Assembly (NCBI GenBank): GCA_044892505.1
Contig: CM097884.1
Location: 129,022,001 to 129,086,000, forward strand
Reading direction: 5' to 3'
Source: Schmidtea nova
Lineage: Eukaryota
Length of the DNA stretch: 64,000 nucleotides
The notes under the pieces were generated by a model, which was not told where the DNA came from, ran no database searches, and saw nothing but the letters and a program-made list of their open reading frames with translations. The first letter of the stretch is position 1. The number at the start of each line of letters is the position of its first letter. Shown piece after piece: positions 1-34,759 of this stretch. Both the position numbers and the translations under genes were made by a program.

Positions 1-585
1 AATTCAATTTTTATTTGCAAAGAGAAAAAATAAATTTCATTTTCGAAATAATTTCGAATGACTTTGAGGAGTAATAATATTTATTTGAACTAATCATTGT
101 TTCATTTGAGGCGACAATTAGTTTGAATTTTTTCTTTTCCTTAAACAGAAGTGAGTCAACGAATAAACAAGAGAAAGTTTTGTTGATGGAATATGTCATG
201 GATTTAGTAAAATAAAATCTGTTTGTGACGAAATAAAAAGTCGTTTGTTATTTCCTCCAAACTTTAATGTCTTCACTTTATAGCAAATGGATTCGACAAT
301 GCAGTTGAATTGATATCAAATGAAGATTGTTTGCGATTGTTGAAATACTTTGATTTTTGTTTTACTATTTGTTGAGTTTGTTTGTGTAAATTTTTTGTGT
401 TCGATTTATTTGTCGTAATGGAATTTTAATTTTTATTAAATTATAATNNNNNNNNNNNNNNNNNNNNNNNNNNNNNNNNNNNNNNNNNNNNNNNNNNNNN
501 NNNNNNNNNNNNNNNNNNNNNNNNNNNNNNNNNNNNNNNNNNNNNNNNNNNNNNNNNNNNNNNNNNNNNNNNNNNNNNNNNNNTA

Positions 586-8200: not shown

Positions 8201-9864
8201 GATAGTTTGTTTAATTTTTGATAACAGTTGAAACTGATAAGTTAATTAAAGGCATATGTCGATAAATATGAGAACTAATTTTGTGATATTTGCGGGAAAA
8301 TTCCTATTCCAAATTGGCTATTAATTATTATCAATTGTCAAATTAGCGGACTGCCGTTTGAAGTGATCGAAATTTTGAAATTTGTAAAAAAAATAATTTT
8401 AATTATAGAAAATAAATCATTTTAGAATCGTGTTTTTCCTTTTCTGTCGATAATTTTTCCACAAAATAAAAGCTGCGCACAATTAACATTTTCTATTAAT
8501 GCTTTTCATTTTCCATTTCAAAAATTTCTATATTGCAATTTTTCACCAAAACCACCTCATAAATTTAAATTTTAAAAAAATTTAACGGGTTATTTTACTT
8601 GATTTTGGTTACATTTTTTTAAAATGAATTACAGATTAGGTACCAGTAAATATTGTAATTTTTGTCCACCATTCACTAAAAAGATTGTTTTATACTATTA
8701 TTTATGACGGTCTCTTTTTTTTATTAAAAAAAATTTATAATAAGTGGTGACAGACGGAGTGACAGTGGCACTTTATAAAAAATAACTATATACTAACGGT
8801 CTCATTTTTTAAATTTATATAAAATAAAATATGAATGGTGTCGGATGAACAGATAATTCTTTTATTCATTATTTATCACAAACTTCTTGCAGACGAAAAT
8901 TAAAAGTTATTTGTTTATGTTTAAAGCTATTTTTTTATTTTATTATATATGGAAAGTTGGCAGAATAGTATAGAACTATTAAACTAAAGTTTTTTTACAC
9001 CTGTTTCCACTAGTTAATTATAAAATGCGAATTATCGCAAATACTTCTTTGGATTTTTCAGGAATTTTCATTTTTTGAAGACATTAGACAAAAATTTCGT
9101 TTGTAAGCATACAAATTAACTAAACATTTTTTTCTATTGGGTATAAAATTTTAAAAATTATAAAATTGTTGGTTGTTGTTAAATAAACATTGAAGAAAAT
9201 GTTTACCATTTTAAATTATACTAATATATTTTGATCGATAGTTTGAAAAAATGAAAATAAATGAAATGACAACTAAGTCCATTGATAGATTTATTTTTAA
9301 ACAAAAATATATTAATAAATTGCTATTATAAGAAGATTGGGATCTGAGAAGTAATGAAAATCAGTATAAAGATTTTATTCCACATCAGTCATAACAAATG
9401 ATTATTTTAAATGTCTCTAAAAACTTGATTTTTATTTGCTCATTCTAGGACTTCATCAGCTAAATATTAATGAGCAACATGCGTGTACACACATTATTCA
9501 GCTTGATTATTCGTCCTGCAAAATAATATTTTTGTAATTTACAATGAATTTCACAAACTAAGAAATTGAAATCCAGTTCTTGAACTTCTATAATTTTTAT
9601 GGAATTTTTATGGAATTGTTTTGATATTTTAACTTTTTTTTCTAGACATTCTATTTTTTTAATTGAAACTTCAGCTTTTTTGTCAATTTAAACAACCAAA
9701 TATTTTTATTTAATTATAAATTATTTAAAAATAATCTAAAAATAATAACAAAAGCATTAATTTTGTTCAACTTTGGTTGCCTTTTTTTATTTCAGAAATT
9801 ATAATTTTTTTTATATAAAGACTAGATCAAAATTGCCTTATAGCACAAGAATAATGAGTAAAAA

Positions 9865-11251
9865 CCCCGGCCTGCCAAAAGTTTCCAGTCAGGTAGTTAT
9901 TTACATATCGCAATTTATAATGAACGTCTGTAGTGTAAATATGAACAGTAATGGGAACAAATGTCACAAACACACACGAATACTGAATGTCTGTAGTGCT
10001 AAGAAAGTTAGTACTTCGTTATATTACCTTACATATGGATAACAAGGCGCACTCGTTTAGACATTGTATCCATCACTTTTGTCAGGAAATCAAGGGAGAT
10101 GTGTGACTATTCCTCATGCAGATGCGTTTCCAGTTCGGAGGAGTTACGGGCAATTGGAATCCTTTTGCGTACTCGTCTACCAAGGACGTCCCACATAAAC
10201 TCAATAGGATTCAAATCAGAGTTTTGTGGAACGCAATCCAAAACGTTAATGCTGTGCAACAGAAATAATTCTTTCATAATGTGCGAAGTATGGATTGGTG
10301 CATTATCCTGTTGGAAAATGAGCCCCTCAATTTCTGAGAGAAAGGGAACTAGCTCATTTTCCAGAATGGCACGGTATTCTACTGACATCATGTGATTGCT
10401 GCATTTTACTAGAGGGCCAGTTCCACGAGCTGAGAAAAGACTCCAAAACATGTTGAAGCTTCCTCCCTATTTCTCAGTTGGCTGAATGCAGTCAGGGTGA
10501 AATTGTTCTCCTTAAATGACGCCAGCAGAATTGCTGTCCATCAGATTTGAAAAGAGTGAAACGTGATTCATCATTCCAAATGACTGAGCGCCATTATTCT
10601 GCTGTCCAACTCCTTCTCTCCTGGTACCACTTCAAGTGACGACGACGAATTGTTTCTGTAATCAAAGGCTTCCTTGCTCAGTATCTGATATATGAACCAT
10701 TAAAATGTAATTCGCGATGAATGGTGGACATGCTGGCATGCACAGGGCCAGTGTTAAATGTGGACACTAACTTGGACAGGGGGAACCGACGATGAGCCAC
10801 CACAAGTCATTTCAGCTGCCGTTGTGTACGGATGCTCAGAAGTTTAGGGCGGCCTGAACGTTGCTTGTTGACATGTCTCTGCGCCTGGCGGTACTTCCTC
10901 AGGAAGTAGTTAATAGTTCCTTTGAAATGGCCAGTCAATGCAATAGTTTCACTCTGACATTTTCTACAAAGGTAACATCCGCAAATAATGCCTTTCTGAA
11001 AGTCTGTAAGCTCTCTCCGAGTAGCCATATTCTAAGAAAATGACAATCCTTCATTAACATGACTCACTGTTATCGCTGTTGTGTGTCTCGTGTGAGAAGT
11101 CATATTCTGTGTCTGTAAATGTGTGCATGCAGCATGTTGAAGGTGTTGGTGACCTTTGTTCCTATTGCTGTTCATATTTACACTGCAGACGTTCATTTTA
11201 AACTGGAATAGGTAAATAACTGCCCGGCTGGAGACTTTTGGTAGGACGGGG
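9865..11251 (-). mobile_element. Tc1-family (DD34E) transposon, decayed
   Basis: ~110-bp diverged TIRs (ccccggcctgccaaaagtttccag at 9865; ctggagacttttggtaggacgggg ending 11251, then TA). Encloses a broken transposase. Confidence 0.9.
10107..11028 (-). pseudogene. Tc1 transposase pseudogene
   Basis: HTH and GRPK in 10807-11028; WNDES (D1) near 10570; FQQDNAPIH...DLNPIEFMW with 34-aa D-E spacing in 10107-10451. Interrupted by stops and frameshifts. Confidence 0.9.
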
Positions 11252-12512
11252 TACATACTTGAAAAAACCTGTTGAAAATATTTATCATATTAAGCAATTT
11301 TTGATTTAGTCTATATAAAAATGAAAATTTTTTTAAAACACTTTTATAAAATATATAGTTATGAATTATAGTCATATTTTATTATAAATAGAATAATTTT
11401 TGAGTTCTGCACTTTTTTGAAAAACCACAAAATCCNNNNNNNNNNNNNNNNNNNNNNNNNNNNNNNNNNNNNNNNNNNNNNNNNNNNNNNNNNNNNNNNN
11501 NNNNNNNNNNNNNNNNNNNNNNNNNNNNNNNNNNNNNNNNNNNNNNNNNNNNNNNNNNNNNNNNNNNNNNNTAAATTTATCGCTGAATTCAACTGGGAGT
11601 TTGCTTGTCAGTTAATTTTTGTATTGCAATTATCTCATTGGACATAAGTCAACCGAACATCCTTAAACATCCTTGTTTGAATTGTTATTTTGCTTATATT
11701 CTAAGTCATTATTCTTTATTAATTATTGTTTATTAATAAAAATTTATAAAAATGCTTTTCAGTAGTTAAGTCTACCTGACTAGAACTTTTTCTTTGGCTA
11801 AAATATACATTTCTCTAGTTAATATTGTTTTGAATCCAATTATAAACATCTATTATTCTTTGATTTGTGAGTAATTTTTGATCTATTTTTATGATTTTTC
11901 GATATTTTAAAACTGTTACATACCAACAAAAACATCTAGTTTTATACATTGAAATAATAATTTGAATTCTTTTTCAATGTTAGATTTTATTATCGAATTC
12001 GTGTTTATTTAATGTAATCTTTTTAATTATAAATTTGATTTTGGAATTATAATTACAAACCTTGAACAGCTGATTTTAATAAGTATTGAATTGCACTTCA
12101 AAAATGTGTTTTGAATGAAAAAATATGAAATATAAATTCTTTAAAAAAAGTTATTTAAATAATTATTTAAAATATTATTTAAAAACTTAATGCTAGGATT
12201 TTTGTATAGTGGTTTCAATAATTTGCACTGAATAAAATCTTACGAGAACGTATTCCGGGTTTTGTTGTAAACAAGTGTAAGCTGACAAGCGTCGCGCGCT
12301 TTAGCTGAAAATAAACCACTAGGAGTCGAGTGTGAATCGGTTTAGCAGAAATTTGAATGCATTCGGCGCGCCAGCGGATCTCGTTCAAAGGCATTAAGTG
12401 GTTAAACAAGATATTTATTTGACCTTTGTGCAATATTTTTGTACAATAAAAGTAGCCATATATAAAAATTAATTTCTATAATTATTCTAAATAAAATTCT
12501 TTCGGCACCGCT

Positions 12513-17777: not shown

Positions 17778-17778
<1 letters not shown>

Positions 17779-19160
17779 GTAGTAGGATGTGAGCGCATCA
17801 GATATAGGTCAAGACCCCCCCCCCCTAGAAAAAAAAAAAAAAAAAAAAAATTTTTTATGTAGGTCGATTTAAGGTCAAATTTTTTATGTAGGTCGATTTA
17901 AGGTCAAATTTTTCGCTTAAGGACACTTTAAGGACACTTTAAGGTCAAATTTTTCGCTTAAGGTCATTTTAAGGACACTTTAAGGTCAAAAAAGTATGTC
18001 AAGGTCGTTTTAAGGACATTTTAAGGTGATTTTAAGGTCAAATTTATGGTTTAAGGACACTTTAAGGACAATAAAGTAGGTCAAGGTCGTTTTAAGGACA
18101 CTATAAGGTCAAAAAGAATGCCAATTTAAGGTCACGATAAGGACAAATTAAGTAGGTCAAATATTTTTAAGGTGATTTTAAGGTTAAAATAAGTAGGTCA
18201 GATATAATTTTCAAATTTTTTCTATGTCAGAAAAAAGTAGGTCAAATATTTTTAAGTTGCTATGACAACGAATAAGTAGGTCAACTTTATTTTTTTTTAA
18301 ATTTGCTAGTTGCTATGACAACGAATTAAGTAGGTCAATAATAATTTTGAAAATTTTTCTATGTCAGAAATAAGTAGGTCAACTTTATTTTTTCAAAAAT
18401 TATTCTATGTCAGAAATAAGTAGGTCAAATATAAAAAACTTGAAAATTTTTCTATGTCAGAATTAAGTAGGTCAAATATAAATACTTGAAAATTTTTCTA
18501 TGTCAGAAATAAGTAGGTCAACTTTATTTTTTCAATAATTTTTCTATGTCAGAAATAAGTAGGTCAACTTTATTTTTCTCAAAAATTTTTCTATGTCAGA
18601 ATAAAGTAGGTCGATTTAAGGTCATGATGAGGACAAAATAAGTAGGTCAATAATTTTCAAAAAAGTAGGTCAAATATAAATACTTGAAAATTTTTCTATG
18701 TCAGAAATAAGTAGGTCAACTTTATTTTTTCAAAAATTTTTCTATGTCAGAAATAAGTAGGTCAACTTTATTTTTCTCAAAAATTTTTCTATGTCAGAAT
18801 AAAGTAGGTCGATTTAAGGTCATGATGAGGACAAATTAAGTAGGTCAATAATTTTCAAATATTTCTAAGTAGGTTAATAATTTCTGTATATGGCTATCTT
18901 ACGTGTGTGTATGTTTTTAATAAGGATAATAGTATGCATTGAACGCGCGTTTCACGCGCGTTCTTCTCCTGTTATTGTTTAAGACAAATAACAGTACTCA
19001 TTGAACGCGCGTGAAACGCGCGTTCTGCTTCTCTTGTTGTTTAAAATAAATAACAGTACGAATTTTCTAAGTCAGAAAAAAGTAGGTCAACTAGATAATT
19101 TTCTATGTCAGAATTATGTAGGTCAAATATAAAAACTTTAAAATTATTCTATGTTAAAAA
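17778..19160 (+). repeat. Polinton left TIR (at least 1383 bp; inner end in gap 19161-19513)
   Basis: Reverse complement of 33499-34759. Made of tandem ~10-46 bp units containing AGGTCA/AGGACA/ATGTCA. Confidence 0.95.
18941..19025. other. Pair of 23-bp hairpins with mutually inverted loops in the TIR
   Basis: GAACGCGCG-TTTCA-CGCGCGTTC (18941-18963) and GAACGCGCG-TGAAA-CGCGCGTTC (19003-19025). Mirrored in the right TIR at ~33634-33718. Confidence 0.9.
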
Positions 19161-19649
19161 NNNNNNNNNNNNNNNNNNNNNNNNNNNNNNNNNNNNNNNN
19201 NNNNNNNNNNNNNNNNNNNNNNNNNNNNNNNNNNNNNNNNNNNNNNNNNNNNNNNNNNNNNNNNNNNNNNNNNNNNNNNNNNNNNNNNNNNNNNNNNNNN
19301 NNNNNNNNNNNNNNNNNNNNNNNNNNNNNNNNNNNNNNNNNNNNNNNNNNNNNNNNNNNNNNNNNNNNNNNNNNNNNNNNNNNNNNNNNNNNNNNNNNNN
19401 NNNNNNNNNNNNNNNNNNNNNNNNNNNNNNNNNNNNNNNNNNNNNNNNNNNNNNNNNNNNNNNNNNNNNNNNNNNNNNNNNNNNNNNNNNNNNNNNNNNN
19501 NNNNNNNNNNNNNAAAAATAATAATATAAATAATAATATTAACAACAAAATATATTTTCTAAGTCGGAAAATTTATTGAAACAAAAGCCGAAAATAATAT
19601 TTTTCATATAATAATGTTGATGATGTGATGAAATTGAATAAAGCCAAGA

Positions 19650-23630: not shown

Positions 23631-24330
23631 GTTGCAATATTTAGGGTATAGAGAGCCTGAATATACAGGAGAAAATTATAAAATGTTTATTATTATTATT
23701 ATTAAAATAGAATATAAAATTAAAATTATACAAATAAAATTGAATTAAAATAGTATTATAAAATATTTGTACATTATCTCGATTTCATCGTGAGATAACG
23801 TAAATTATTATTATAAAAATAACTTGAAATAGTAAGTTTAAAATATTTGAAGAAATATTATAGTAACGAATTTACTATGATATGTCTTGAAATATCTTAA
23901 ATAGTTTAAAATTATTAAAATAATATCATAAATTATTTNNNNNNNNNNNNNNNNNNNNNNNNNNNNNNNNNNNNNNNNNNNNNNNNNNNNNNNNNNNNNN
24001 NNNNNNNNNNNNNNNNNNNNNNNNNNNNNNNNNNNNNNNNNNNNNNNNNNNNNNNNNNNNNNNNNNNNNNNNNNNNNNNNNNNNNNNNNNNNNNNNNNNN
24101 NNNNNNNNNNNNNNNNNNNNNNNNNNNNNNNNNNNNNNNNNNNNNNNNNNNNNNNNNNNNNNNNNNNNNNNNNNNNNNNNNNNNNNNNNNNNNNNNNNNN
24201 NNNNNNNNTAGTAAAATTATTATTATTAATATTAAGAAAATCATTTATTACATATTATAAAATTATTAATTATATATTATAAAATTAAAAAAGTATTTCA
24301 AAATGCTATAAAAATAGAATAAAAACTTAC

Positions 24331-24816
24331 ATTTATCAGATTCATTTTCATTCAAAATATCATCATCATCCGAAATATTATATATTTCCTCCGAATTCTT
24401 TTGCATATCTTCATCATTATTATTATTAAATTGTTTCGACGATTTTCTACATTCGTCATTATTTTCTAAAATAATTTCTAAAATAACAATATATAATATT
24501 AAATAATAAATTACCATTAGTATATTCGGCATCAATATCAGCGGGAAAAATGCGTCCGCGTTGGTCTATCGGTCTGAATAAATTTGATTTAACTTGTCGA
24601 ATTTCTAAAATTTTAAATTTTAAAAAATATATTTAAAATAAAAATAAATACCATTTTGCCCTAAAACAATATTTACTGGGGCTTCATACTTCAACTTGGA
24701 ATCATTCGAAGCTGCTGAAAATTGAAATAATTTAAAGATAATATAATAAAATAAAAAATAAAATTACCCATGGCGGCGACATTCTTCTTTGTTATATTTT
24801 TAATATTATTCAGCAT
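24331..24816 (-). CDS. Spliced Polinton gene (4 or more exons, 3' part in gap), possibly the 5' exons of pPolB
   Basis: Exons 24816-24768, 24714-24652, 24604-24515, 24477-24331. GT-AG introns of 53, 47 and 37 nt, all phase 1. Joined frame is open: MLNNIKNITKKNVAAMAASNDSKLKYEAPVNIVLGQNEIRQVKSNLFRPIDQRGRIFPADIDAEYTNEIILENNDECRK...DK. Next donor GTAAGT at 24330. Confidence 0.65.
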
Positions 24817-24896
24817 GTTGATTGAGAGATTTTAATTAAATTGAATGCAATAGTAAAATTGGTTGTTAAAAAGTGATGAAAAATGAAAAGATAGTG

Positions 24897-25100
24897 TATA
24901 TAACTAAAATTATTCAACGGTTATTAACCGGCCAATCAAATACGTTTTAGGTGAGAGAAATATACGCACACATATATTTCTTTATGGTTATTACACTGAC
25001 GTGTTTATAATACTAGTATGTGTGTCAATATAACATATGATGTCATGTCAGTTTCCATGTGAATTCATAAAGACATGTGAGTTCATGACCTCTGACGTCA
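24897..25100 (-). promoter_or_regulatory. Putative Pol II promoter of the spliced gene/pPolB
   Basis: TATATA at 24897-24902, CCAAT at 24932-24936, CRE palindrome TGACGTCA at 25093-25100. Short motifs in AT-rich DNA. Confidence 0.35.
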
Positions 25101-25218
25101 TTGTCGACTTTATCTAGTCTTTGTTAACTTTGTTAGTTTGCAAATAATAATATTCATTAAATAATAATAATAAAAGACATTAATACAATGAAATAAATTT
25201 ATTGAAATAACAATATAT

Positions 25219-25605
25219 TTATGACTTTAAATAATCTATAACACTACGCAAACATTCTTTATAGGCACACATACTATGGTCTCTATAGGGACAAGAAATA
25301 TTATCTGGAACATCTTCAATTTCTTTTAAATTATATTTGATTAGTCTCAAAGTGGGAAAATATTTCTTCAAAGCAATAAGTTTATCCATATCTGTGACAT
25401 AGAAAATAGCATTACTATCTTCAATATCTTTCATAATACATATTGGACAAAAGTAATCTTCCTCCTCATACCACTCACTACAAACTTTATTATATATGTA
25501 ATATTTAGGTCTAAAAATATTATTAACGTTTATAATACATAATTCATTAATAATTAATCTTCCATTATTGTAAATTCCTATAAAATCAATAAAATAACAA
25601 GTCAT
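25219..25605 (-). CDS. Polinton accessory protein, DEDD/DnaQ- or Maelstrom-like fold with C-H-C motif (~128 aa)
   Basis: N-terminal FIDFIG...IINELCII pattern and C-terminal CPYRDHSMCA. Start at 25605 preferred because the longer ORF overlaps the protease. Confidence 0.5.
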   Translation of the reverse strand: MTCYFIDFIGIYNNGRLIINELCIINVNNIFRPKYYIYNKVCSEWYEEEDYFCPICIMKDIEDSNAIFYVTDMDKLIALKKYFPTLRLIKYNLKEIEDVPDNISCPYRDHSMCAYKECLRSVIDYLKS

Positions 25606-25637
25606 TTTTATACTAAATTTTATTTTTATTAAATTGT

Positions 25638-26020
25638 TTATACATTTAACATGGATAATAACCATGCAAGACAATGTTGACCACAAGTAATTGTTAATGG
25701 ATGTTGATATCGAATTCTATTGTATACAATCGGTTTACCCAAAGTTTGCAATTTACTAACTAATAAATTGGGATAATAACATCCAAATGGATCAAATGCA
25801 TATATTCGATCTGGTTTAACGTAAACAGCAATCCAATGTTCACCACCCAAAGTAGATGTCTGAGTATTTACGATGATAGCTTGATTAACATCCATATAAG
25901 GAATTTTATCTAAGGGATAAACTCCAATAAATTGATTTCCCAATAATTTTTTGCCAAGTCTATATACCTGAATTGAACTAATTTAATTAATTATTTTTAC
26001 AAATTAAAATCTTACTCCAT
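25638..26020 (-). CDS. Adenain-like cysteine protease (spliced, ~114 aa)
   Basis: GEHW, FDPFG and Q...CGQHC catalytic motifs. Exon ATGGA (26020-26016) plus a 38-nt GT-AG intron (26015-25978) gives MDSIQVYRLGKKLLGNQFIGVYPLD. The track ORF starts at an internal TTG. Confidence 0.9.
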
Positions 26021-26111
26021 GATAATTTTACTATAGTGATTTGGTTCATTTATACTATAAGAGTTCAAATCAGTGATGTTTGAGCTCAAACTAATAATGT
26101 TTGAGCTCTGC

Positions 26112-27332
26112 TCAAACCAATACTGTTCGATTTGCAGTAATTTGGATTTCATTTTCAAAAACTCCATATATTATTACATGAACCGGTTCCTCAATGGCTT
26201 TACCAAATTTGATATCTAATCGTAAATTTCCATTTTGAGGGATTTGACTTTGATTCAAATCGAAATCAGGAGCAAGAACAAACGTAAAGAATGGATAACT
26301 AGATTTAAATTCATCTAGACTTATACCACAATTCAAGTTTTTATCCAAATATCCTAAATTCCGGACAAGACTTTGCATATATGTGGCACTAAAATTATCA
26401 TTTTCAAAATCTTGATTATAAGTTTCCCGATAATCAGTATTTTTTGACAGAGATAATGATGTTACATTGAAATGTTTGAATGTAGATGAAGAAGCAGAAT
26501 AAGATCCGTTATATTGATTTTCAGTTTGAAAAGCTACAAGAATGAAATTAGGCATTCTTCTATCTCCAAATATTTGCTCCTTGTAAAATGATGATGCCCC
26601 TTTACCGATTGCAAAAGATACAATTTCTTTTGATTTTATCGGATAAATTGCATGTTTGTTATTTAATCCAATTTGATGTCCAGCTAATACTGAAGATTCA
26701 CATCGAACTCTTCGTACCATTAATTTTGCATCTACTATTTGTATTATTGGTTTCCCAGCTGTAGATGCCAATGATAATGCAGAATCAGATCTCTTCAATC
26801 TAATATGTACATTAACTCCCGGAAGTAAATATTTAGGTTGATCCAAAAAATCTAGTTGTAATGATGAACACATGTTGAAAAGTTTCGATCCTTTAATCCA
26901 CTTTTTTCTATCGTCAGATGCGCCGTATCCCATTGGAGTAAGACAAGTTTCTTTTGCATCACTAGTATAATTTAAAATAGTTTCAATTATTGCCTTGTGT
27001 GCATATGTATTGTTTCCACCCTCAACTTTTATATTATTAAATCCAAGAATTGCATCTTTGAAAAGTGTATGAAACAGGTAATTATTAGGTACTACATCAC
27101 TAGCATCAGCTAATTGTTTTTTATCTTTATCTACAACTTTGACAGTAACGGATAATAAAGTATCATTTAAATCTAAATATTCGGTTTGTGAACCGTTAAT
27201 GTAAAATTCGATATCATTTCTACTATCTGTAATGGAATTCATTGGAAACACATCTTCAAACACCCCATATTCAATAACTGCTTGGGGAGATGGTCGATCA
27301 AAAAGACATAATTCAGATTTACCGCAAATCAT
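26112..27332 (-). CDS. Major capsid protein (double jelly-roll, Polinton PY/hexon-like), 406 aa
   Basis: Characteristic N-terminus KSELCLFDRPSPQAVIE...IEFYINGSQTEYLDLNDTLL and C-terminus GNLRLDIKF...VYGVFENEIQIT, plus size and position. Confidence 0.9.
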   Translation of the reverse strand: MICGKSELCLFDRPSPQAVIEYGVFEDVFPMNSITDSRNDIEFYINGSQTEYLDLNDTLLSVTVKVVDKDKKQLADASDVVPNNYLFHTLFKDAILGFNNIKVEGGNNTYAHKAIIETILNYTSDAKETCLTPMGYGASDDRKKWIKGSKLFNMCSSLQLDFLDQPKYLLPGVNVHIRLKRSDSALSLASTAGKPIIQIVDAKLMVRRVRCESSVLAGHQIGLNNKHAIYPIKSKEIVSFAIGKGASSFYKEQIFGDRRMPNFILVAFQTENQYNGSYSASSSTFKHFNVTSLSLSKNTDYRETYNQDFENDNFSATYMQSLVRNLGYLDKNLNCGISLDEFKSSYPFFTFVLAPDFDLNQSQIPQNGNLRLDIKFGKAIEEPVHVIIYGVFENEIQITANRTVLV

Positions 27333-27694
27333 TCTTCAAATATAGTTCCATGTCCTTTCATTCGATTGTTTATACGCTTTCTACCTTTTTTACGTTTTGG
27401 TTCTACTGGTTCAGGTTCTGGTTCATTTTTTGTAAACATATTTGTAATTGAAGGAATCGCTTTTGAAACAGCATCCATAGCATTCGTTTTCAATGAAGGC
27501 AATATTTTTTGGTCTTTCATGATAACATCTCTAGCAGTTTTCATTCCAAAACTACCTAGTCGTTTAAGAATTGGAAGTGCAAATCTACCAATAGTTTTCA
27601 ACCAACCTGATCCATACTGCTTACCTACAAAATACGGTAATTCACCACCGGTTTGGCTATTACTATACAATGAAATTATATCGGGATTACTCAT
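27329..27694 (-). CDS. Putative virion core protein with QxGG/QxGxG maturation sites, 121 aa
   Basis: SQTGGE, KQYGSGW, amphipathic helix, basic tail KRKKGRKR. Overlaps the MCP and penton ORFs. Confidence 0.65.
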   Translation of the reverse strand: MSNPDIISLYSNSQTGGELPYFVGKQYGSGWLKTIGRFALPILKRLGSFGMKTARDVIMKDQKILPSLKTNAMDAVSKAIPSITNMFTKNEPEPEPVEPKRKKGRKRINNRMKGHGTIFEE

Positions 27695-28733
27695 TTAATT
27701 TACGAAAATGTAATGTCAAATGTGTTTTTGAATCTTTTGGAAAATTTATTAATTTACCACTATCGTCACGTATATTTATTTCTATATTGTTTATACATGA
27801 GGTAGAAATAGGTAAGTACATTGGATTATCCATTACTATTTGTACAACTTCATCCTGTTCATATTTTTCGATCCATACAGATTTCAGTAGAGGAACCAGA
27901 GAATCACCGACAATTATTGGTTCAATAATGTTACTGTAAATGAACATTTGTTGATGATGAACAAGTATTTTAGGTTTCACAGTCCCATCGATAAGGTTTC
28001 GGTCTCTATACGTTTGTTTAGCTAATCCTAAAGTATTGACCAAGTTTTTATCAAATGTAACTTCACTAATATTATCATTGAGACAGAATTGGAACCATTT
28101 ATTAATCTCTAGAGTTTTAAAGATATGGGAACAATTGAATGATAAATATTTAGATAAATCTTCCAATTGTACTATATACAAATCATTTGCAAATGTAAAT
28201 GTATCTTCAATTTCTGCCTCATAAGATATTGTCACCGTAATATCTTCTTTCAAATAACTATTCGGTTCAAATAATATGAACTTTAATTGATATTCTTTTA
28301 GTGTACTCACAATTTTAAGTTGATTACTTCCCATTCGCTTGGCTTCTTCAATATTTTTAAATGTAATTGTATATGGAGTAAAATCACAATTAATATTTAA
28401 ACAACCATTGCTGAAATACATACTACAATGAACATTCAAATTTTGGTTAGGAATATTATAAATTCTTTCAAAATTGTTGATGATGAATAGACCACTGCAT
28501 GTTCTATTTTCAATTCTTTTGTAATCAATCTTACATTGACTATAAAATGGAAATGTATTGTACACAAACGTGAAATCTTGTAATGCAACTTCCCAATTAC
28601 CATCTAAATAAATTGGATTTTGAAGATTGACCATGAATTTACTGGCTTGATTGTCTGGATGTATTAGCGGACAGCTATTACTTGGTAATATAGTATAAAA
28701 ATTCACTTTACTAGGTTTTTTGACGATATCCAT
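27687..28733 (-). CDS. Minor capsid protein (penton-like, Polinton PX), 348 aa
   Basis: FYTILPSNS...FMVNLQNPIYLDGNWEVAL N-terminus and FIYSNII...VGDSLVPLL...YLPI...IEINIRDDSG C-terminus. Confidence 0.9.
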   Translation of the reverse strand: MDIVKKPSKVNFYTILPSNSCPLIHPDNQASKFMVNLQNPIYLDGNWEVALQDFTFVYNTFPFYSQCKIDYKRIENRTCSGLFIINNFERIYNIPNQNLNVHCSMYFSNGCLNINCDFTPYTITFKNIEEAKRMGSNQLKIVSTLKEYQLKFILFEPNSYLKEDITVTISYEAEIEDTFTFANDLYIVQLEDLSKYLSFNCSHIFKTLEINKWFQFCLNDNISEVTFDKNLVNTLGLAKQTYRDRNLIDGTVKPKILVHHQQMFIYSNIIEPIIVGDSLVPLLKSVWIEKYEQDEVVQIVMDNPMYLPISTSCINNIEINIRDDSGKLINFPKDSKTHLTLHFRKLNE

Positions 28734-29750
28734 GATGGTTCTTTATATCCATGCCACTTGACGTAGTATTGTTTATCTTTACCGACCATTTTAGTTTTCA
28801 ATATTTTTTGAATTCTAGATATTGTCGGAGGGGGAATAACTTGTAATTCTTGCTCATAGAATTTTCCACTGACTATATTGTTATCAGAATCAGAAATAGT
28901 ATACATGACAGGATTCTGGACTGTGTTGACTTTCGATATTTGAAATACCTCATCACTCCAATTACTATCAAAATTTTTAATGAATGGCGATGCGCTAATT
29001 TTACTAATTCGAACATGATCACCTATTTTATATTTTGGTTTCTTTATTTTTGTATCACTCAAAATATTTTCAGTATCAACTACTTCAGCAGGTTTCTTTC
29101 CATTTATACCTCGATGAGCAGAATGATTATAACTATGAATAATTTGTGGTAAAACATTAATCCATGTTTTATTCCCTTGATGCACAAAATACTTTTTGAG
29201 ACGATCTCGTAATGTACGATTAAATCTTTCAACATGAGCGGCTTTGAATTGAGAGAATACTGAGTAATGATTGATTCCCTTTATAATTTCTTTGACTTTG
29301 CTATTGTAAAATTCCTTACCTGGATAAATAATTATCATTATATAAAATATTTATTAGCTTACCCAAATCAGTTTGTAAATTAGTTGGACGATCCTGTTTC
29401 ATCATTGTTTTGATTGCGATTGCCATATCATTAGCAGATTTAGATTTTACTGGAATAGCTCGAGCGAAACGACTGTAAACATCAATACATGTTAAAATAT
29501 ACTTGTATCCCTTGTTAATTTTTGAATACGGAATCATTTCCATCAAATCCATTTGCCACAAATCATTGATTCTATATGTTTTATATGCTCGAGTCGGAAA
29601 CCGTTTCAGCATCGGTTTGTTTAGACTGTATGCAAGTTGCCCCGATAACCAACTTTGAGTCTGTTTTTTCGAATTCAATACATTTTTGCTTAGCTTTTCG
29701 ACTCCACCGAAACCTGCTTCGTGTTTTGGGTTGGTCCAAATCTTCTCCAT
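28703..29750 (-). CDS. Retroviral-type (rve) integrase with C-terminal chromodomain, spliced (~334 aa)
   Basis: The two track ORFs join through a 43-nt phase-1 intron (29362-29320), restoring QTDLG|KEF. DDE residues in WQMDL, QTDLG and VERFNRTL. Chromo-like QKIL...YYVKWHGY..PSWI. Confidence 0.92.
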
Positions 29751-29805
29751 TACAACAAGAAGATTTAAAGTTTAAATTAAGATTAGGCAATGATTGTCCC
29801 ATTGT

Positions 29806-30348
29806 TTATGACTGTTTTCCTAATAAACCAGCACCTCCTAATAGTGATAATGCTAATGGTAACAATGCTGCAATAAACCCTCCTTGTTGTTTATATATTA
29901 TTTTACGCATTAATTTTCTATTTTTGGTTTTTACAAGTGATAACAATGGTTTCTTGTGTTTGTTCAAAACTCTTCTATTAGATTCACTTATATTGATTTT
30001 ACCTCTAACAACTTTAATTAAAATCATTAGTAAATCGTCAATAACGTAATTAGGAAACGATTGTAAAATACTCATTCTTCTAATACTAGGGGCTTTAAGT
30101 AATGCGTTGAAAAATGGGAAACTACGATGATGTATTTGTTTTGGATTTGGTTTGTAAGTATTTTGAATACGATTACTTTTTGGGATATTATCAATAAGTA
30201 ATTTTTTAGATGGTGTATAACTGGTTTTTGAAACTGGTTTCTTTGTTTTCTTTGTAAATACTTTCTTTGAAACTAATTTCTTTCCCGGTTTCTTCATTTT
30301 TCTAGCCTTTATCAAGCGCTCAAACTTTACTCTAGATTTCATTAACAT
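29806..30348 (-). CDS. Lys-rich putative core protein with adenovirus pX/mu-like C-terminus, 180 aa
   Basis: Basic N-terminus; C-terminal QQGGFIAALLPLALSLLGGAG. Confidence 0.65.
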   Translation of the reverse strand: MLMKSRVKFERLIKARKMKKPGKKLVSKKVFTKKTKKPVSKTSYTPSKKLLIDNIPKSNRIQNTYKPNPKQIHHRSFPFFNALLKAPSIRRMSILQSFPNYVIDDLLMILIKVVRGKINISESNRRVLNKHKKPLLSLVKTKNRKLMRKIIYKQQGGFIAALLPLALSLLGGAGLLGKQS

Positions 30349-30368
30349 GATTGATAATATACATCTAG

Positions 30369-30992
30369 TTAACTTTGTTTATAAACCATGGCTCCTTCCT
30401 TGTTGAAAATATCGGTTCTAACTCTTAAATCATCACTACATTGTTGTGTGAAATCAAGAAAAAGATATCCATGAGGTGCTTTTGTGGCATCTTGGAATGC
30501 ATCAATCAAGAAATTACGATTAGAAGGGTATGCTTGTCTTGCAAGAAAATCAATCACTGTTGCGTCTCTAGGATTTTTAAAAACAACAAGATATTGAACA
30601 TTCAAATTACGAGTTCGATGACTACCGCCCTGATGAAATAAATTCTGAGTAATAAATATGACTGTAACACCTTTGTGTCTAGCGATTTTGGTAAATAAAT
30701 TATTAAAATCCTTTTCTTTATTTGCTTCTTGGTACAAATCATCAATAATAATCACATCCCCTTCTCTTAATCTAGATGACCAATTTTTATCGAAACCTTT
30801 TATTATAGTCATTTTTATTTTACAAAATTGATCTTGAGTCATTCCATGTTCATCATCCGCACCCCTATGCCAATAAATTTTATTAAACTTTGATTTAAAT
30901 AATTTTGATTGTAATAATTTACAAACAAATAAAGTTTTTCCACTACCGCTTGGTCCAACAATTTGAAACACTGCATCATTTCTTAATTCCAT
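30369..30992 (-). CDS. A32/FtsK-type genome packaging ATPase, 207 aa
   Basis: Walker A GPSGSGKT, Walker B IIIDD, and RHKGVTVIFITQNLF and FKNPRD motifs. Confidence 0.95.
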   Translation of the reverse strand: MELRNDAVFQIVGPSGSGKTLFVCKLLQSKLFKSKFNKIYWHRGADDEHGMTQDQFCKIKMTIIKGFDKNWSSRLREGDVIIIDDLYQEANKEKDFNNLFTKIARHKGVTVIFITQNLFHQGGSHRTRNLNVQYLVVFKNPRDATVIDFLARQAYPSNRNFLIDAFQDATKAPHGYLFLDFTQQCSDDLRVRTDIFNKEGAMVYKQS

Positions 30993-31008: not shown

Positions 31009-31045
<37 letters not shown>

Positions 31046-31107
31046 GTTTATATTTGTTTTAAATAATAGTTTTAATTATTATTATCATATTTAAAAAATT
31101 TCCAGTA

Positions 31108-31575
31108 ATGATTAGCAACATAAATTATAAGGGTAAGACAGATGTATCACACATGAAATTTCCTAAGGGGAAACCACAACAAATTATTGATAGAAGTGGT
31201 AAATATCCGATAATATATTTTAAGACCGGGAGATTTAGAATTATGGGATGCAAGGAATTTATAAGTGATGAAAAAGTAAAGATTTATGATTTAACAATCC
31301 AATCGATTACTGTAACGACAGATTTAGGATTTATTTGTAATTTAAATGATTTGGCTAAATTACTAGAATGTGTTTATGAGCCTGAATTATTTCCAGCTTT
31401 GAGATATATAAAATATAATCCCATGTGTGTTAATATATTTGCAAGTGGTAAAATAGTTATATTAGGTTTAAAAGACAAAGACTATTTAAATATAGTTGAT
31501 AATATTATTACAGATATAAAATCAATTATTGAAGATAAAGCCTTTGTTGATTTCATATTATCGTGTGACTCATGA
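31108..31575 (+). CDS. TATA-binding protein (TBP)-like protein, 155 aa
   Basis: The second repeat TIQSITVTTDLGF..NL..LA...YEPELFPAL.Y...P....IFASGKIVILGLK aligns by eye to TBP repeat 2 (KIQNMVGSCDVKF..RL..L...YEPELFPGLIY...P....IFVSGKVVLTGAK). The first repeat is degenerate (SNIN...YFKTGRFRIMGCK). Confidence 0.88.
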   Translation: MISNINYKGKTDVSHMKFPKGKPQQIIDRSGKYPIIYFKTGRFRIMGCKEFISDEKVKIYDLTIQSITVTTDLGFICNLNDLAKLLECVYEPELFPALRYIKYNPMCVNIFASGKIVILGLKDKDYLNIVDNIITDIKSIIEDKAFVDFILSCDS

Positions 31576-31749: not shown

Positions 31750-32357
31750 ATGTGTCTAAAATCCACTCTAGTGAAATATGGTAAAGTTTTGAATTTATTA
31801 TTTTTCATTATTATAATATTTATTTTTTAGATAAATTAATGACAGTTCTTTTAGGGAAAGTAGAGGAGATGTTTCCTAATCTAATGGCGAATTTAATTTA
31901 TACAGCGCCGGAAATGCTCCCAATCAAAATATTATCGATCACTGGGATTGATATTAACCAGGTCTTGCTAGATCACCTGGCCAACTTGGATTTGGAGCTG
32001 CCATTCATGGCAGAGCACATTCTTTGTGCCTACCAATGCGGTCACTGTACAGATAGAATTGCAAAATATCGGATTTGGGTTTTGAGAAAGGCGCTCAAAA
32101 ATTTCGAGATGGATTCTCGAAAAGAAAAAGAAAATGAAGAAACACCAATACAATGGCCAAACTCAACTCCTGAAGATGCGTCCGAATGTGACCAAAATAC
32201 TGATGGTCCCGATTCTTCAAATTGTCCAGCACCAACCATCGATGGACCATATCCGCTGGAATGCGATCAGTCTCCAGCATCGCAAGAATCACCAGAATCA
32301 CCCAATTGCGATGAATGCCATCGCAAAGTTGATAATGATATTGACATGGTTGAATAA
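31750..32357 (+). CDS. Orphan Polinton protein, spliced (~185 aa), acidic/Pro-rich tail
   Basis: Exon 31750-31780 (MCLKSTLVKY) and a 50-nt phase-1 GT-AG intron (31781-31830) join in frame to the track ORF at 31839. Confidence 0.65.
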
Positions 32358-32896: not shown

Positions 32897-33313
32897 ATGC
32901 CAGCACGTAAATCAACTTATGACATCAGTGAAGAAAGAAAAATCAATAATGAAGTGAAACCAGTACAAATGTATTACGATTACAAAATTTATTTCCTGGT
33001 TCAAGAAATACCATTTCGTTTATCGTATCCAGTTAAATTAACAAAGTCATTGTATGATAATTTAGCCGCAAATCTAAGTAAAGAAGATGTTGTTGCACTG
33101 AATAAAGTTTTATTCAAAATCAATAACAATTTAAGCTGCAAGGAAACTATATGGATCAACAATCGAAAAACCCGTTTCCATGATGCTTTCCAATCTATCG
33201 AATACAAGGATCAAGAAAATTGGTTTATTACCATAATCATTCAGGGTTATAAAATCGATACCAAAGATGTTATAACTCCAATTTGGAGAATCGACAGTGC
33301 ACGATATACATAA
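32897..33313 (+). CDS. Orphan Polinton protein, 138 aa (possible OB-fold ssDNA-binding protein)
   Basis: Clean ORF with promoter motifs. Beta-rich C-terminus WFITIIIQGYKI...ITPIWRI. The function is inference only. Confidence 0.55.
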   Translation: MPARKSTYDISEERKINNEVKPVQMYYDYKIYFLVQEIPFRLSYPVKLTKSLYDNLAANLSKEDVVALNKVLFKINNNLSCKETIWINNRKTRFHDAFQSIEYKDQENWFITIIIQGYKIDTKDVITPIWRIDSARYT

Positions 33314-33498
33314 ATATTATTTTATAAATGTTATATTCAATAAAGTTTAGTAATTTGGATTTTANNNNNNNNNNNNNNNNNNNNNNNNNNNNNNNNNNNN
33401 NNNNNNNNNNNNNNNNNNNNNNNNNNNNNNNNNNNNNNNNNNNNNNNNNNNNNNNNNNNNNNNNNNNNNNNNNNNNNNNNNNNNNNNNNNNNNNNNNN

Positions 33499-34759
33499 TT
33501 TTTAACATAGAATAATTTTAAAGTTTTTATATTTGACCTACATAATTCTGACATAGAAAATTATCTAGTTGACCTACTTTTTTCTGACTTAGAAAATTCG
33601 TACTGTTATTTATTTTAAACAACAAGAGAAGCAGAACGCGCGTTTCACGCGCGTTCAATGAGTACTGTTATTTGTCTTAAACAATAACAGGAGAAGAACG
33701 CGCGTGAAACGCGCGTTCAATGCATACTATTATCCTTATTAAAAACATACACACACGTAAGATAGCCATATACAGAAATTATTAACCTACTTAGAAATAT
33801 TTGAAAATTATTGACCTACTTAATTTGTCCTCATCATGACCTTAAATCGACCTACTTTATTCTGACATAGAAAAATTTTTGAGAAAAATAAAGTTGACCT
33901 ACTTATTTCTGACATAGAAAAATTTTTGAAAAAATAAAGTTGACCTACTTATTTCTGACATAGAAAAATTTTCAAGTATTTATATTTGACCTACTTTTTT
34001 GAAAATTATTGACCTACTTATTTTGTCCTCATCATGACCTTAAATCGACCTACTTTATTCTGACATAGAAAAATTTTTGAGAAAAATAAAGTTGACCTAC
34101 TTATTTCTGACATAGAAAAATTTTCAAGTTTTTTATATTTGACCTACTTATTTCTGACATAGAATAATTTTTGAAAAAATAAAGTTGACCTACTTATTTC
34201 TGACATAGAAAAATTTTCAAAATTATTATTGACCTACTTAATTCGTTGTCATAGCAACTAGCAAATTTAAAAAAAATAAAGTTGACCTACTTATTCGTTG
34301 TCATAGCAACTTAAAAATATTTGACCTACTTTTTTCTGACATAGAAAAAATTTGAAAATTATATCTGACCTACTTATTTTAACCTTAAAATCACCTTAAA
34401 AATATTTGACCTACTTAATTTGTCCTTATCGTGACCTTAAATTGGCATTCTTTTTGACCTTATAGTGTCCTTAAAACGACCTTGACCTACTTTATTGTCC
34501 TTAAAGTGTCCTTAAACCATAAATTTGACCTTAAATTCACCTTAAAATGTCCTTAAAACGACCTTGACCTACTTTTTTGACCTTAAAGTGTCCTGAAAAT
34601 GACCTTAAGCGAAAAATTTGACCTTAAAGTGTCCTTAAAGTGTCCTTAAGCGAAAAATTTGACCTTAAATCGACCTACATAAAAAATTTGACCTTAAATC
34701 GACCTACATAAAAAAAATTTTTTTTTTTTCTAGGGGGGGGGTCTTGACCTATATCTGAT
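33499..34759 (-). repeat. Polinton right TIR (at least 1261 bp; both ends in gaps)
   Basis: Reverse complement of the left TIR, with about 3 substitutions and two fewer ~46-bp units. Confidence 0.95.

Follow-up and report, generated by a model that had tools for sequence, protein, structure and literature searches.

Large DNA viruses that carry a TATA-binding protein (TBP) mostly also encode an RNA polymerase of their own. The TBP-like proteins of Nucleocytoviricota (ASFV B263R-like, poxvirus VITF-3) are virus-encoded and divergent, with an N-lobe regulator surface that is not conserved (PMC7221094, PMC12917281), and the former survey describes them as mostly accompanied by a viral TFIIB and as having a variable stirrup. 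In beta- and gammaherpesviruses a viral TBP (vTBP; KSHV ORF24, EBV BcRF1, HCMV UL87) acts at TATT late promoters and needs five more viral proteins (PMC7498053). ORF24 consists of several domains and makes direct contact with the Pol II CTD. For integrated Polintons and their switch from quiet transposon to virion production, no description of a promoter or activator was found in the literature searched. The only precedent found in print is a bare 'TBP' label in a figure legend (Starrett et al. 2021, PMC8502044, Fig. 5) to the genome map of a MELD virus, which likewise places a TBP-like gene in an element with an adintovirus-like PolB. The label may stand for the mini or the full type; one supplement of the same paper has no whole-word mention of TBP, and the text searched contains no analysis of the gene (PMC8502044).

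The window analysed here, a stretch of 64,000 nt from Schmidtea nova, contains a Polinton of ~17 kb with a gene for a small TBP-family protein, which we call mini-TBP. Like the herpesviruses, this element combines a virus-encoded TBP fold with a private TATA variant before structural genes and, here by prediction, host Pol II, and by analogy it most likely works like the ORF24/TATT system, but in minimal form. ORF24 is larger and relies on its further viral factors, whereas mini-TBP is a bare, reduced TBP with a cellular-like sequence and a retained TFIIB stirrup. Its TBP fold begins at residue 1, so that an N-terminal Pol II CTD-binding domain is absent, its model gives a weak fold match to BcRF1 (E 0.04), and the word found in the element, [T/C]ATAAAC[A/G], differs from TATT; mini-TBP is not a member of the herpesvirus vTBP family. 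Fold matches to the TBP-like proteins of large DNA viruses range from E 1e-7 to 1e-3. Unlike those viruses, the element showed neither a viral TFIIB nor an RNA polymerase in our scans, and both stirrup Glu are kept.

Neither 'TBP' nor 'TATA' occurs in the main texts of PMC11071296 and PMC11071308, and four supplements of PMC7221094 name no polinton, maverick, adinto or virophage. Beyond the Starrett label we found no account of mini-TBP or of the word in the literature searched, a scope outside which lie subscription journals, Repbase, figures and bioRxiv supplements. The preliminary description of this DNA knew of no report of TBP in Polintons. Given the bare label in PMC8502044 and the herpesvirus late-gene TBP mimics already known, the novelty is slightly lower than supposed.

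The Polinton and its mini-TBP gene

The element is a Polinton/Maverick. With the adintovirus-like members of this group it shares long TIRs, AG...CT ends and 6-bp target duplications, as well as a gene set of pPolB, integrase, ATPase, protease and capsid genes (Table 1). In four of six sister copies fetched from the genome, AGTAG...CTACT ends were flanked by perfect 6-bp target duplications; in the other two the element ends were not found. The TBP-family gene and the shared promoter-like word are extras compared to other Polinton/Maverick elements, with no description in the literature searched. The earlier statement that TBP is not among the core Polinton genes is supported.

Table 1. Features of the element and sites of the promoter-like word (positions in the window).
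Feature	Position	Strand	Remarks
Left TIR	17778..19294	.	starts AGTAG; inner end uncertain, partly N
pPolB-like frame, 1326 aa	19650..23630	-	open frame; homologues beside capsid genes in relatives
orf148, conserved Polinton gene	25219..25665	-	homologues in 13 loci
Word TATAAACA	25635..25642	-	37 nt before Met21 of orf148
Adenovirus-type cysteine protease, part with in-frame ATG	25638..25895	-	PF00770 E 1.2e-5
Major capsid protein (MCP)	26112..27332	-	PF21738 DJR-like E 4.3e-4, below cut-off; homologues in relatives
orf121, basic core-protein-like (inferred role)	27329..27694	-	homologues in 6 loci
Word TATAAACA	27367..27374	-	42 nt before MCP ATG
Putative minor capsid protein	27687..28733	-	no Pfam match; conserved position in relatives
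Word TATAAACA	27788..27795	-	101 nt before orf121, inside minor capsid gene
Retroviral-like integrase with chromo-like tail	28703..29750	-	PF00665 E 8.4e-9, PF00385 E 1.4e-4
Word CATAAACA	29803..29810	-	60 nt before integrase ATG
orf180, conserved basic protein	29806..30348	-	
Second integrase word site	29888-29895		
A32-like packaging ATPase	30369..30992	-	PF04665 E 2.7e-6; head-to-head with mini-TBP gene, 115-nt gap
Word TATAAACA	30376..30383	-	35 nt before orf180, inside ATPase codons Y-K-Q
Word TATAAACA	31045..31052	-	60 nt before ATPase ATG
mini-TBP gene	31108..31575	+	155 aa; PF00352, predicted fold, family alignment
mini-TBP parts	aa 1-47; 48-59; 60-153		repeat 1, helix-less in the model; short linker; complete repeat 2
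orf172, fast-evolving neighbour	31839..32357	+	present in own-genome subfamilies
orf138, likely T7 gp2.5/Enc34-type single-strand DNA-binding protein	32897..33313	+	canonical TATAAAT upstream
Right TIR	33365..34759	.	outer end under N

For the pPolB-like frame, which contains recognisable polymerase motifs, Pfam returned only a weak endonuclease VII match. The putative minor capsid protein is assigned by its position. The integrase consists of two frames around a 43-nt GT..AG intron-like stretch (29320-29362, minus strand). It has two frames in the sampled own-genome copies and one frame in relatives; a frameshift common to relatives was rejected as an explanation, as relatives are single-frame and the junction resembles a short intron. 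Nuclear Pol II transcription of the element would fit this intron-like stretch. The start of orf148 is likely Met21 (25605). At about 25900-26050 on the minus strand, the first part of the protease lacks an in-frame ATG and may hold a short intron. No homologue of orf172 was detected in 81 metagenome and viral loci. The orf138 product is predicted to adopt an OB fold (pLDDT 86.7) with middling similarity (Z 7-8) to phage and ASFV SSB folds, the nearest being Enc34, T7 gp2.5 and ASFV CP312R; its family occurs in 21 of 80 loci, and searches of Atlas and PHROGs gave no useful match. As a transcription partner of mini-TBP orf138 was set aside because of this SSB-like predicted fold.

Other features of the window were noted in passing. 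On the minus strand, 24250-25110 holds an apparently spliced accessory gene behind a CRE-like TGACGTCA, together with repeated CATG-containing words, a CCAAT-like box and a TATAAACAC site; these upstream elements are a possible stress-responsive control region. Outside the element, a transposon of the Tc1/mariner type at 43817-45319 has perfect inverted repeats of 125 nt and encodes a DDE transposase in an open frame of 400 aa. Two further stretches are probably other repeats: a 117-nt inverted repeat flanking a GC-richer stretch (9857-11259), and a GC-rich region of strong skew at 35900-39500, whose 220-aa ORF has no Pfam match.

The ORF at 31108-31575 was confirmed as a real TBP homologue within this Polinton/Maverick. 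It lies between the TIR arms detected at 17837-19294 and 33365-34729 and head-to-head with the ATPase gene, as the preliminary description had it, and its translation contains both YEPELFP and IFASGKIVILG. PF00352 matched residues 62-129 as a single stretch (E 2.1e-14) with 53.5 bits, far above the curated Pfam cut-off of 22.9, and all 35 matching sequences in a PDB sequence search were TBPs. An AlphaFold2 model built from a 54-sequence alignment (mean pLDDT 93.6) superimposed on TBP over residues 1-145 with Z 12.1 and an rmsd of 2.9 A (142 aligned), compared to Z 6.3 for the best non-TBP fold, and Foldseek matched it to TBP with E 3e-9. The model thus predicts a two-lobed saddle with a continuous curved sheet, the same over both halves as in cellular and archaeal TBP (PF00352; PDB 5fur_A, 1mp9_B, 2z8u; Z 12, rmsd 2.6-2.9 A, 142 residues). 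BLASTP of one mini-TBP half against the other detected no likeness (E 3.1), so recognition of repeat 1 comes from the fold and the family alignment. In common with cellular and archaeal TBP are the complete repeat 2 (YEPELFP stirrup, both Phe, Pro) and the second Phe of repeat 1. In contrast, mini-TBP has ~150 rather than ~180 aa, H1 and H2 of repeat 1 are missing from the model, and the Asn-Val-Thr contact positions of cellular TBP are replaced by family-specific Asn, Arg, Met and Ser. By profile and fold mini-TBP is a TBP-family member, but it lacks the two complete repeats, the four Phe and the basic H2 patch of a canonical TBP.

Repeat 1, DNA face and stirrup of mini-TBP

Two segments in and directly after repeat 1 fall short of their full-type counterparts by 13 and 16 residues: N6-F38 comprises 31 residues and G47-S66 18 residues, where the medians of full-type TBPs (56 sequences, from cells, archaea and other sources) are 44 and 34. 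The second segment has at most 25 residues in 134 of 175 family members but in none of the 56 full-type proteins. Since these segments are short and the model has no helix before residue 79, H1 and H2 of repeat 1 are both lost in the predicted structure, while its strands and F38 are kept. The short linker and the loss of H2 had been noted at the outset and stand; the additional loss of H1 and of one repeat-1 Phe had been missed, as had the retooled DNA face and the promoter-like word. The absent residue is the first Phe of repeat 1, presumably the yeast F99 position: Phe occurs there in 0 of 175 family members and in 49 of 56 other TBPs. Three of the four intercalating Phe are kept (F38, F95, F111).

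Repeat 2 is complete, with stirrup residues E91 and E93 followed by F95, P96 and F111, and the earlier observations of a conserved C-terminal repeat beside a shortened N-terminal one and of a retained stirrup with both repeat-2 Phe were borne out. Ten residues (P23, F38, R44, M46, S66, E91, E93, F95, R99, F111) are invariant in 54 of 54 aligned sequences, the register around P23 being alignment-based; this alignment gives the fair counts for R44 and M46, as the 175-member set was defined by these two residues. In the larger set N109 is found in 174 and N6 in 151 of 175 members, and the stirrup has Glu or Asp at the E91 position in 171 and E93 in 174 of 175. At the new-face positions other TBPs have mostly Val, Thr, Asn, Ile and Leu. 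Judged from these alignments, the DNA face of mini-TBP appears as a fixed new state rather than an eroded one, and the acidic C-lobe stirrup expected for TFIIB has been kept.

R99 and N109 align with what we take to be yeast I194 and L205. TBPm3, a variant of altered specificity, carries changes at three residues, and these are two of them (PMC1636458). The same source assigns the reading of the 5' half of the box to the C-proximal repeat of TBP and that of the 3' half to the N-proximal one, and C was disfavoured at randomised 3' positions in the TBPm3 selection. The basic H2 patch of TBP binds TFIIA, Mot1, TAF1, Brf1 and Brf2 (PMC7221094), and the segment that would hold this N-lobe patch is deleted in mini-TBP. 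Because of this deletion, the alternative of a regulator-insensitive viral TBP raised in the preliminary description fits the alignment. A sister clade (L074-L094) has the new DNA face with near-full segment lengths, suggesting that the face was altered first and the helices lost afterwards; the H2 region of this intermediate clade is present and mostly acidic or neutral. Giardia TBP, in which three Phe are missing, binds single-stranded DNA (PMC12209930), so that the ligand may shift with the loss of Phe.

Conservation and history of the family

In its own genome the gene is present in many intact copies. Among the best 150 mini-TBP matches, all were 98-100% identical and free of stops (150/150). 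A 23-mer of the TBP gene has 343 exact matches and one of the MCP gene 715, a gap explained by the sites that have the MCP 23-mer alone: of 20 inspected, 16 have a TBP variant of full length (86-98% identical) and the other 4 end before the gene is reached. A further subfamily also carries the mini-TBP gene at 4/4 sites. Compared with the window copy, dN/dS was 0.12-0.24 for 18 of the 20 sister copies, while the two remaining ones, which are nearly identical to it, gave 0.39-0.42, and 1/20 has a stop; these 20 copies fall into few subfamilies and are not independent. The mini-TBP gene is under purifying selection. A decaying host capture was rejected on the basis of the low dN/dS, the intact sister copies and the placement of the gene apart from host TBPs.

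This placement comes from a quick tree with 147 rows (every dereplicated locus row, a third of the remaining family rows and 56 others), in which a branch of SH-aLRT 99 separates the mini-TBP family from everything else, the four TBP stretches of the host included. Of the several TBP paralogues of the host (L140-L144), two are divergent (L142, L143), and one of these (L143) lacks Phe at two repeat-1 sites; the host TFIIB gene is spread over several exons. Judged from the sequence, the host is AT-rich, probably an animal, and its introns are short.

A protein search with mini-TBP gave 70 matches, of which ~66 were short relatives found in metagenomes or in assembled sequencing runs, and among the best 120 profile matches none came from NCBI or UniRef. 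Another gene of the element type is carried by 57 of 80 metagenome loci: 42 have a capsid, packaging or integrase-module gene, 2 only pPolB and 13 only orf138. The remaining loci are 18 contigs of at most 3.1 kb without match and 5 with cellular-type TBPs. TBP distances track those of ATPase, MCP and integrase (Mantel rho 0.80, 0.83 and 0.84; n=18, 10 and 13), with at most 1/2000 permutations as high as observed. Mini-TBP is thus co-inherited with the Polinton core genes. The own-genome copies L120-L139 are mosaic: identity to the window copy is mostly 93-99% for capsid genes, 86-90% for TBP genes and 55-66% for orf172, a pattern that points to an exchange of modules among subfamilies.

Three Polintons of other types (L111, L105, L178) encode full two-repeat TBPs of 180-188 aa with the F99 Phe, all outside the mini-TBP family. 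TBP genes may be common in Polintons and may have been gained more than once. In L111, PC4-like genes lie beside the full-type TBP (PF02229 E 3.6e-21), and L105 has a second TBP-like ORF. The contigs L174-L178 are Polinton-like but lie inside bacterial MAG records and are probably mis-binned eukaryotic DNA. A close relative that had lost the mini-TBP gene was found neither in viral contigs nor in genome contigs. The TBP search of viral contigs gave one match, a full-type TBP without a matched Polinton gene (L031), and ATPase or MCP queries detected no Polinton there; with a divergent MCP query the own genome yielded nothing but 25-27% matches, most of which have the frame length of this element family, and a scan of genome contigs yielded 6 distant contigs.

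The word [T/C]ATAAAC[A/G] and its candidate reader

Across the whole window TATAAACA is not above chance, with 14 occurrences compared to 10.6 expected and 17 of 100 shuffles reaching 14; the signal is local to the element. Inside it, all ten occurrences of [T/C]ATAAAC[A/G] lie on the capsid-module strand, compared to 8 and 5 per strand outside, and the unmasked part of the TIRs contains none. In an unbiased ranking of heptamers over 92 kb of late-gene sequence in 35 dereplicated regions, 34 of them from metagenomes, ATAAACA and TATAAAC were the top two, and TATAAAC occurred 91 times in sense and 6 times in antisense direction with 24 expected. Strand counts were 66/0 and 20/0 for TATAAAC[A/G], compared to 51/39 and 12/12 for canonical TATAAA[A/T/G] in the same regions. 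One-letter variants of the word had little or no strand bias, GTAAACA being mildly sense-biased (19 versus 5). Within the last 60 codons, the synonymous sites were fixed for the word in 23 of 24 Y-K-Q/H triplets (0.43 expected) and likewise in 29 of 36 I-N-A.. triplets (0.11 expected), the latter compared to 6/47 elsewhere.

An ORF start lies within 120 nt of the word at 123 of 176 sites. The distances peak at 30-39 nt (48 sites), only 13 being closer than 30 nt, and 22 of the 123 start-linked sites have no stop nearby; another 18 sites are near a stop without a start within 200 nt, several of them at contig ends. In the loci of relatives, the word was found at -110 to -20 before ATPase (19/22), MCP (9/10), orf121 (6/6), minor capsid (6/9), integrase (8/14) and orf148 (3/6) genes, but before none of 51 TBP genes, 27 of which are preceded by a canonical TATA. 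The own-genome copies keep the word before ATPase (20/20), orf180 (22/22), integrase (21/21), orf121 (20/23) and MCP (23/23), with a distance to the ATPase ATG of 36-37 nt in 18 of 20 sister copies. In the same genome, no word occurs within 120 nt before the minor capsid gene (0/24) or before orf172 and orf138, the TBP genes have neither the word nor a canonical TATA (0/20 each), and orf138 is preceded by a canonical TATA in 10/10 copies. Altogether, the word is a DNA-level signal tied to gene starts.

Strand enrichment of the word was absent from six ATPase-found contigs without mini-TBP in their assembled part (1/1, 0/0, 0/0, 2/2, 2/3 and 1/1; two with 25-27% GC, one with a full-type TBP) and from L111 and L105 with their full-type TBPs. 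These control Polintons are incomplete contigs of other lineages, so that the contrast amounts to about one lineage versus the rest and is confounded with descent. Protein and word are linked only by co-occurrence in these sequences.

By analogy with the described systems, we consider it probable that mini-TBP is a late-gene TBP that reads the element's own promoter word together with host TFIIB and Pol II. Mini-TBP would be made first, from a host-read promoter; this step is weak in the present family, because its own TBP genes lack a canonical TATA. The two Phe of repeat 2 would then grip the word at its 5' half and the acidic stirrup of this repeat would bind host TFIIB, and the retooled repeat 1 (one Phe lost; Asn6, Arg44 and Met46 fixed) would read the 3' half with a preference for C, which cellular TBP tends to avoid there. 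Mini-TBP would accordingly prefer TATAAACA over TATAAAAG. The loss of H1 and H2 would keep it from binding TFIIA, TAF1, Mot1, Brf1 or Brf2, so that its action would be confined to Pol II genes and it would evade eviction. The outcome would be an early-to-late switch for the element, as in beta- and gammaherpesviruses.

A host factor reading the word, be it TFIID that takes it for a weak TATA variant, a TBP paralogue or a forkhead protein, with mini-TBP acting elsewhere or only assisting, is unlikely, though several points speak for it. ATAAACA is a forkhead-type site, and the host has its set of TBP paralogues. TBP can also be crystallised on the C(-25) TATA variant (PDB 1qn3), and the controls are confounded with lineage. 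However, canonical TATA words show little strand bias in regions where TATAAAC[A/G] is exclusively sense. The word is one-directional, has a single distance peak, accepts G at its last position and is common to many environmental lineages, and a host reader would leave the fixed new DNA face unexplained.

The preliminary description had also raised a TFIIB decoy. For a dominant-negative protein damping host transcription without action on the element promoters speak the strongly kept stirrup beside a reduced repeat 1 and the element's want of a TFIIB match of its own. But a decoy could do without three of the four Phe and several residues of the new DNA face, all of them invariant, the matching promoter-like word would be left without explanation, and a general inhibitor in hundreds of genomic copies would presumably be costly. 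We regard this reading as quite improbable; TFIIB binding as such is expected under both main readings.

Mini-TBP could instead serve the word as a viral TBP only together with a partner encoded by the element (e.g. orf148, orf180 or an unrecognised TFIIB-like protein), host TFIIB alone being insufficient. An unseen viral partner is conceivable because herpesvirus vTBP needs its five additional proteins, six factors in all (PMC7498053), most TBP-bearing viruses in one survey encode a TFIIB-like protein (PMC7221094), and the loss of two helices may bare a partner surface. Yet no accessory gene accompanies TBP in all clades, and the commonest neighbour, orf138, has an SSB-like predicted fold. 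The TFIIB family (PF00382) gave no match in the scanned window ORFs or in 74 accessory ORFs of relatives, among which a remote homologue could escape; further viral activators likewise had no Pfam match among the scanned ORFs, most accessory ORFs being without a family. The acidic stirrup is kept in mini-TBP, compared to ~40% conservation in those viral TBPs (PMC7221094). We regard such a dependence as quite improbable as well.

Barely credible is a role of mini-TBP in replication, integration or packaging (at TIRs or single strands) with the word as an RNA 3'-end signal: the word does contain a polyA-like hexamer and is often near a stop, and the gene is often beside an SSB-like gene, but the word tracks starts and not stops, 22 sites having no nearby stop, it is found at 55 of 93 gene ends with a gene following versus 6 of 23 without, it precedes the head-to-head ATPase where no gene ends, and it is missing from the unmasked TIR part.

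On the late-gene reading, the evidence can be joined into a fuller proposal, to which we give an even chance: mini-TBP would be the smallest working TBP, of ~150 aa, which has shed the whole regulator-binding face, reads [T/C]ATAAAC[A/G] and forms a Pol II initiation complex with host TFIIB alone, free of TFIIA, TAF and Mot1 control; this orthogonal pair would be the Polinton late-gene switch, and the graded clades (full-length, re-faced, helix-less) would record its origin. If true, Polinton late genes would have a named activator and a named word, and a 17-kb element would run a herpesvirus-like late programme with one small gene. Mini-TBP would be a natural test of which TBP parts are needed for Pol II initiation and could supply an orthogonal TBP-promoter pair, and the word could serve as a marker for start sites in related elements.

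A different word was noticed in the Polinton L111, where GTAAGAAT stands directly before the ATG of 3 of 13 ORFs (positions 2741, 7285 and 8225), possibly by chance. It recalls the late TAAG element of baculoviruses.
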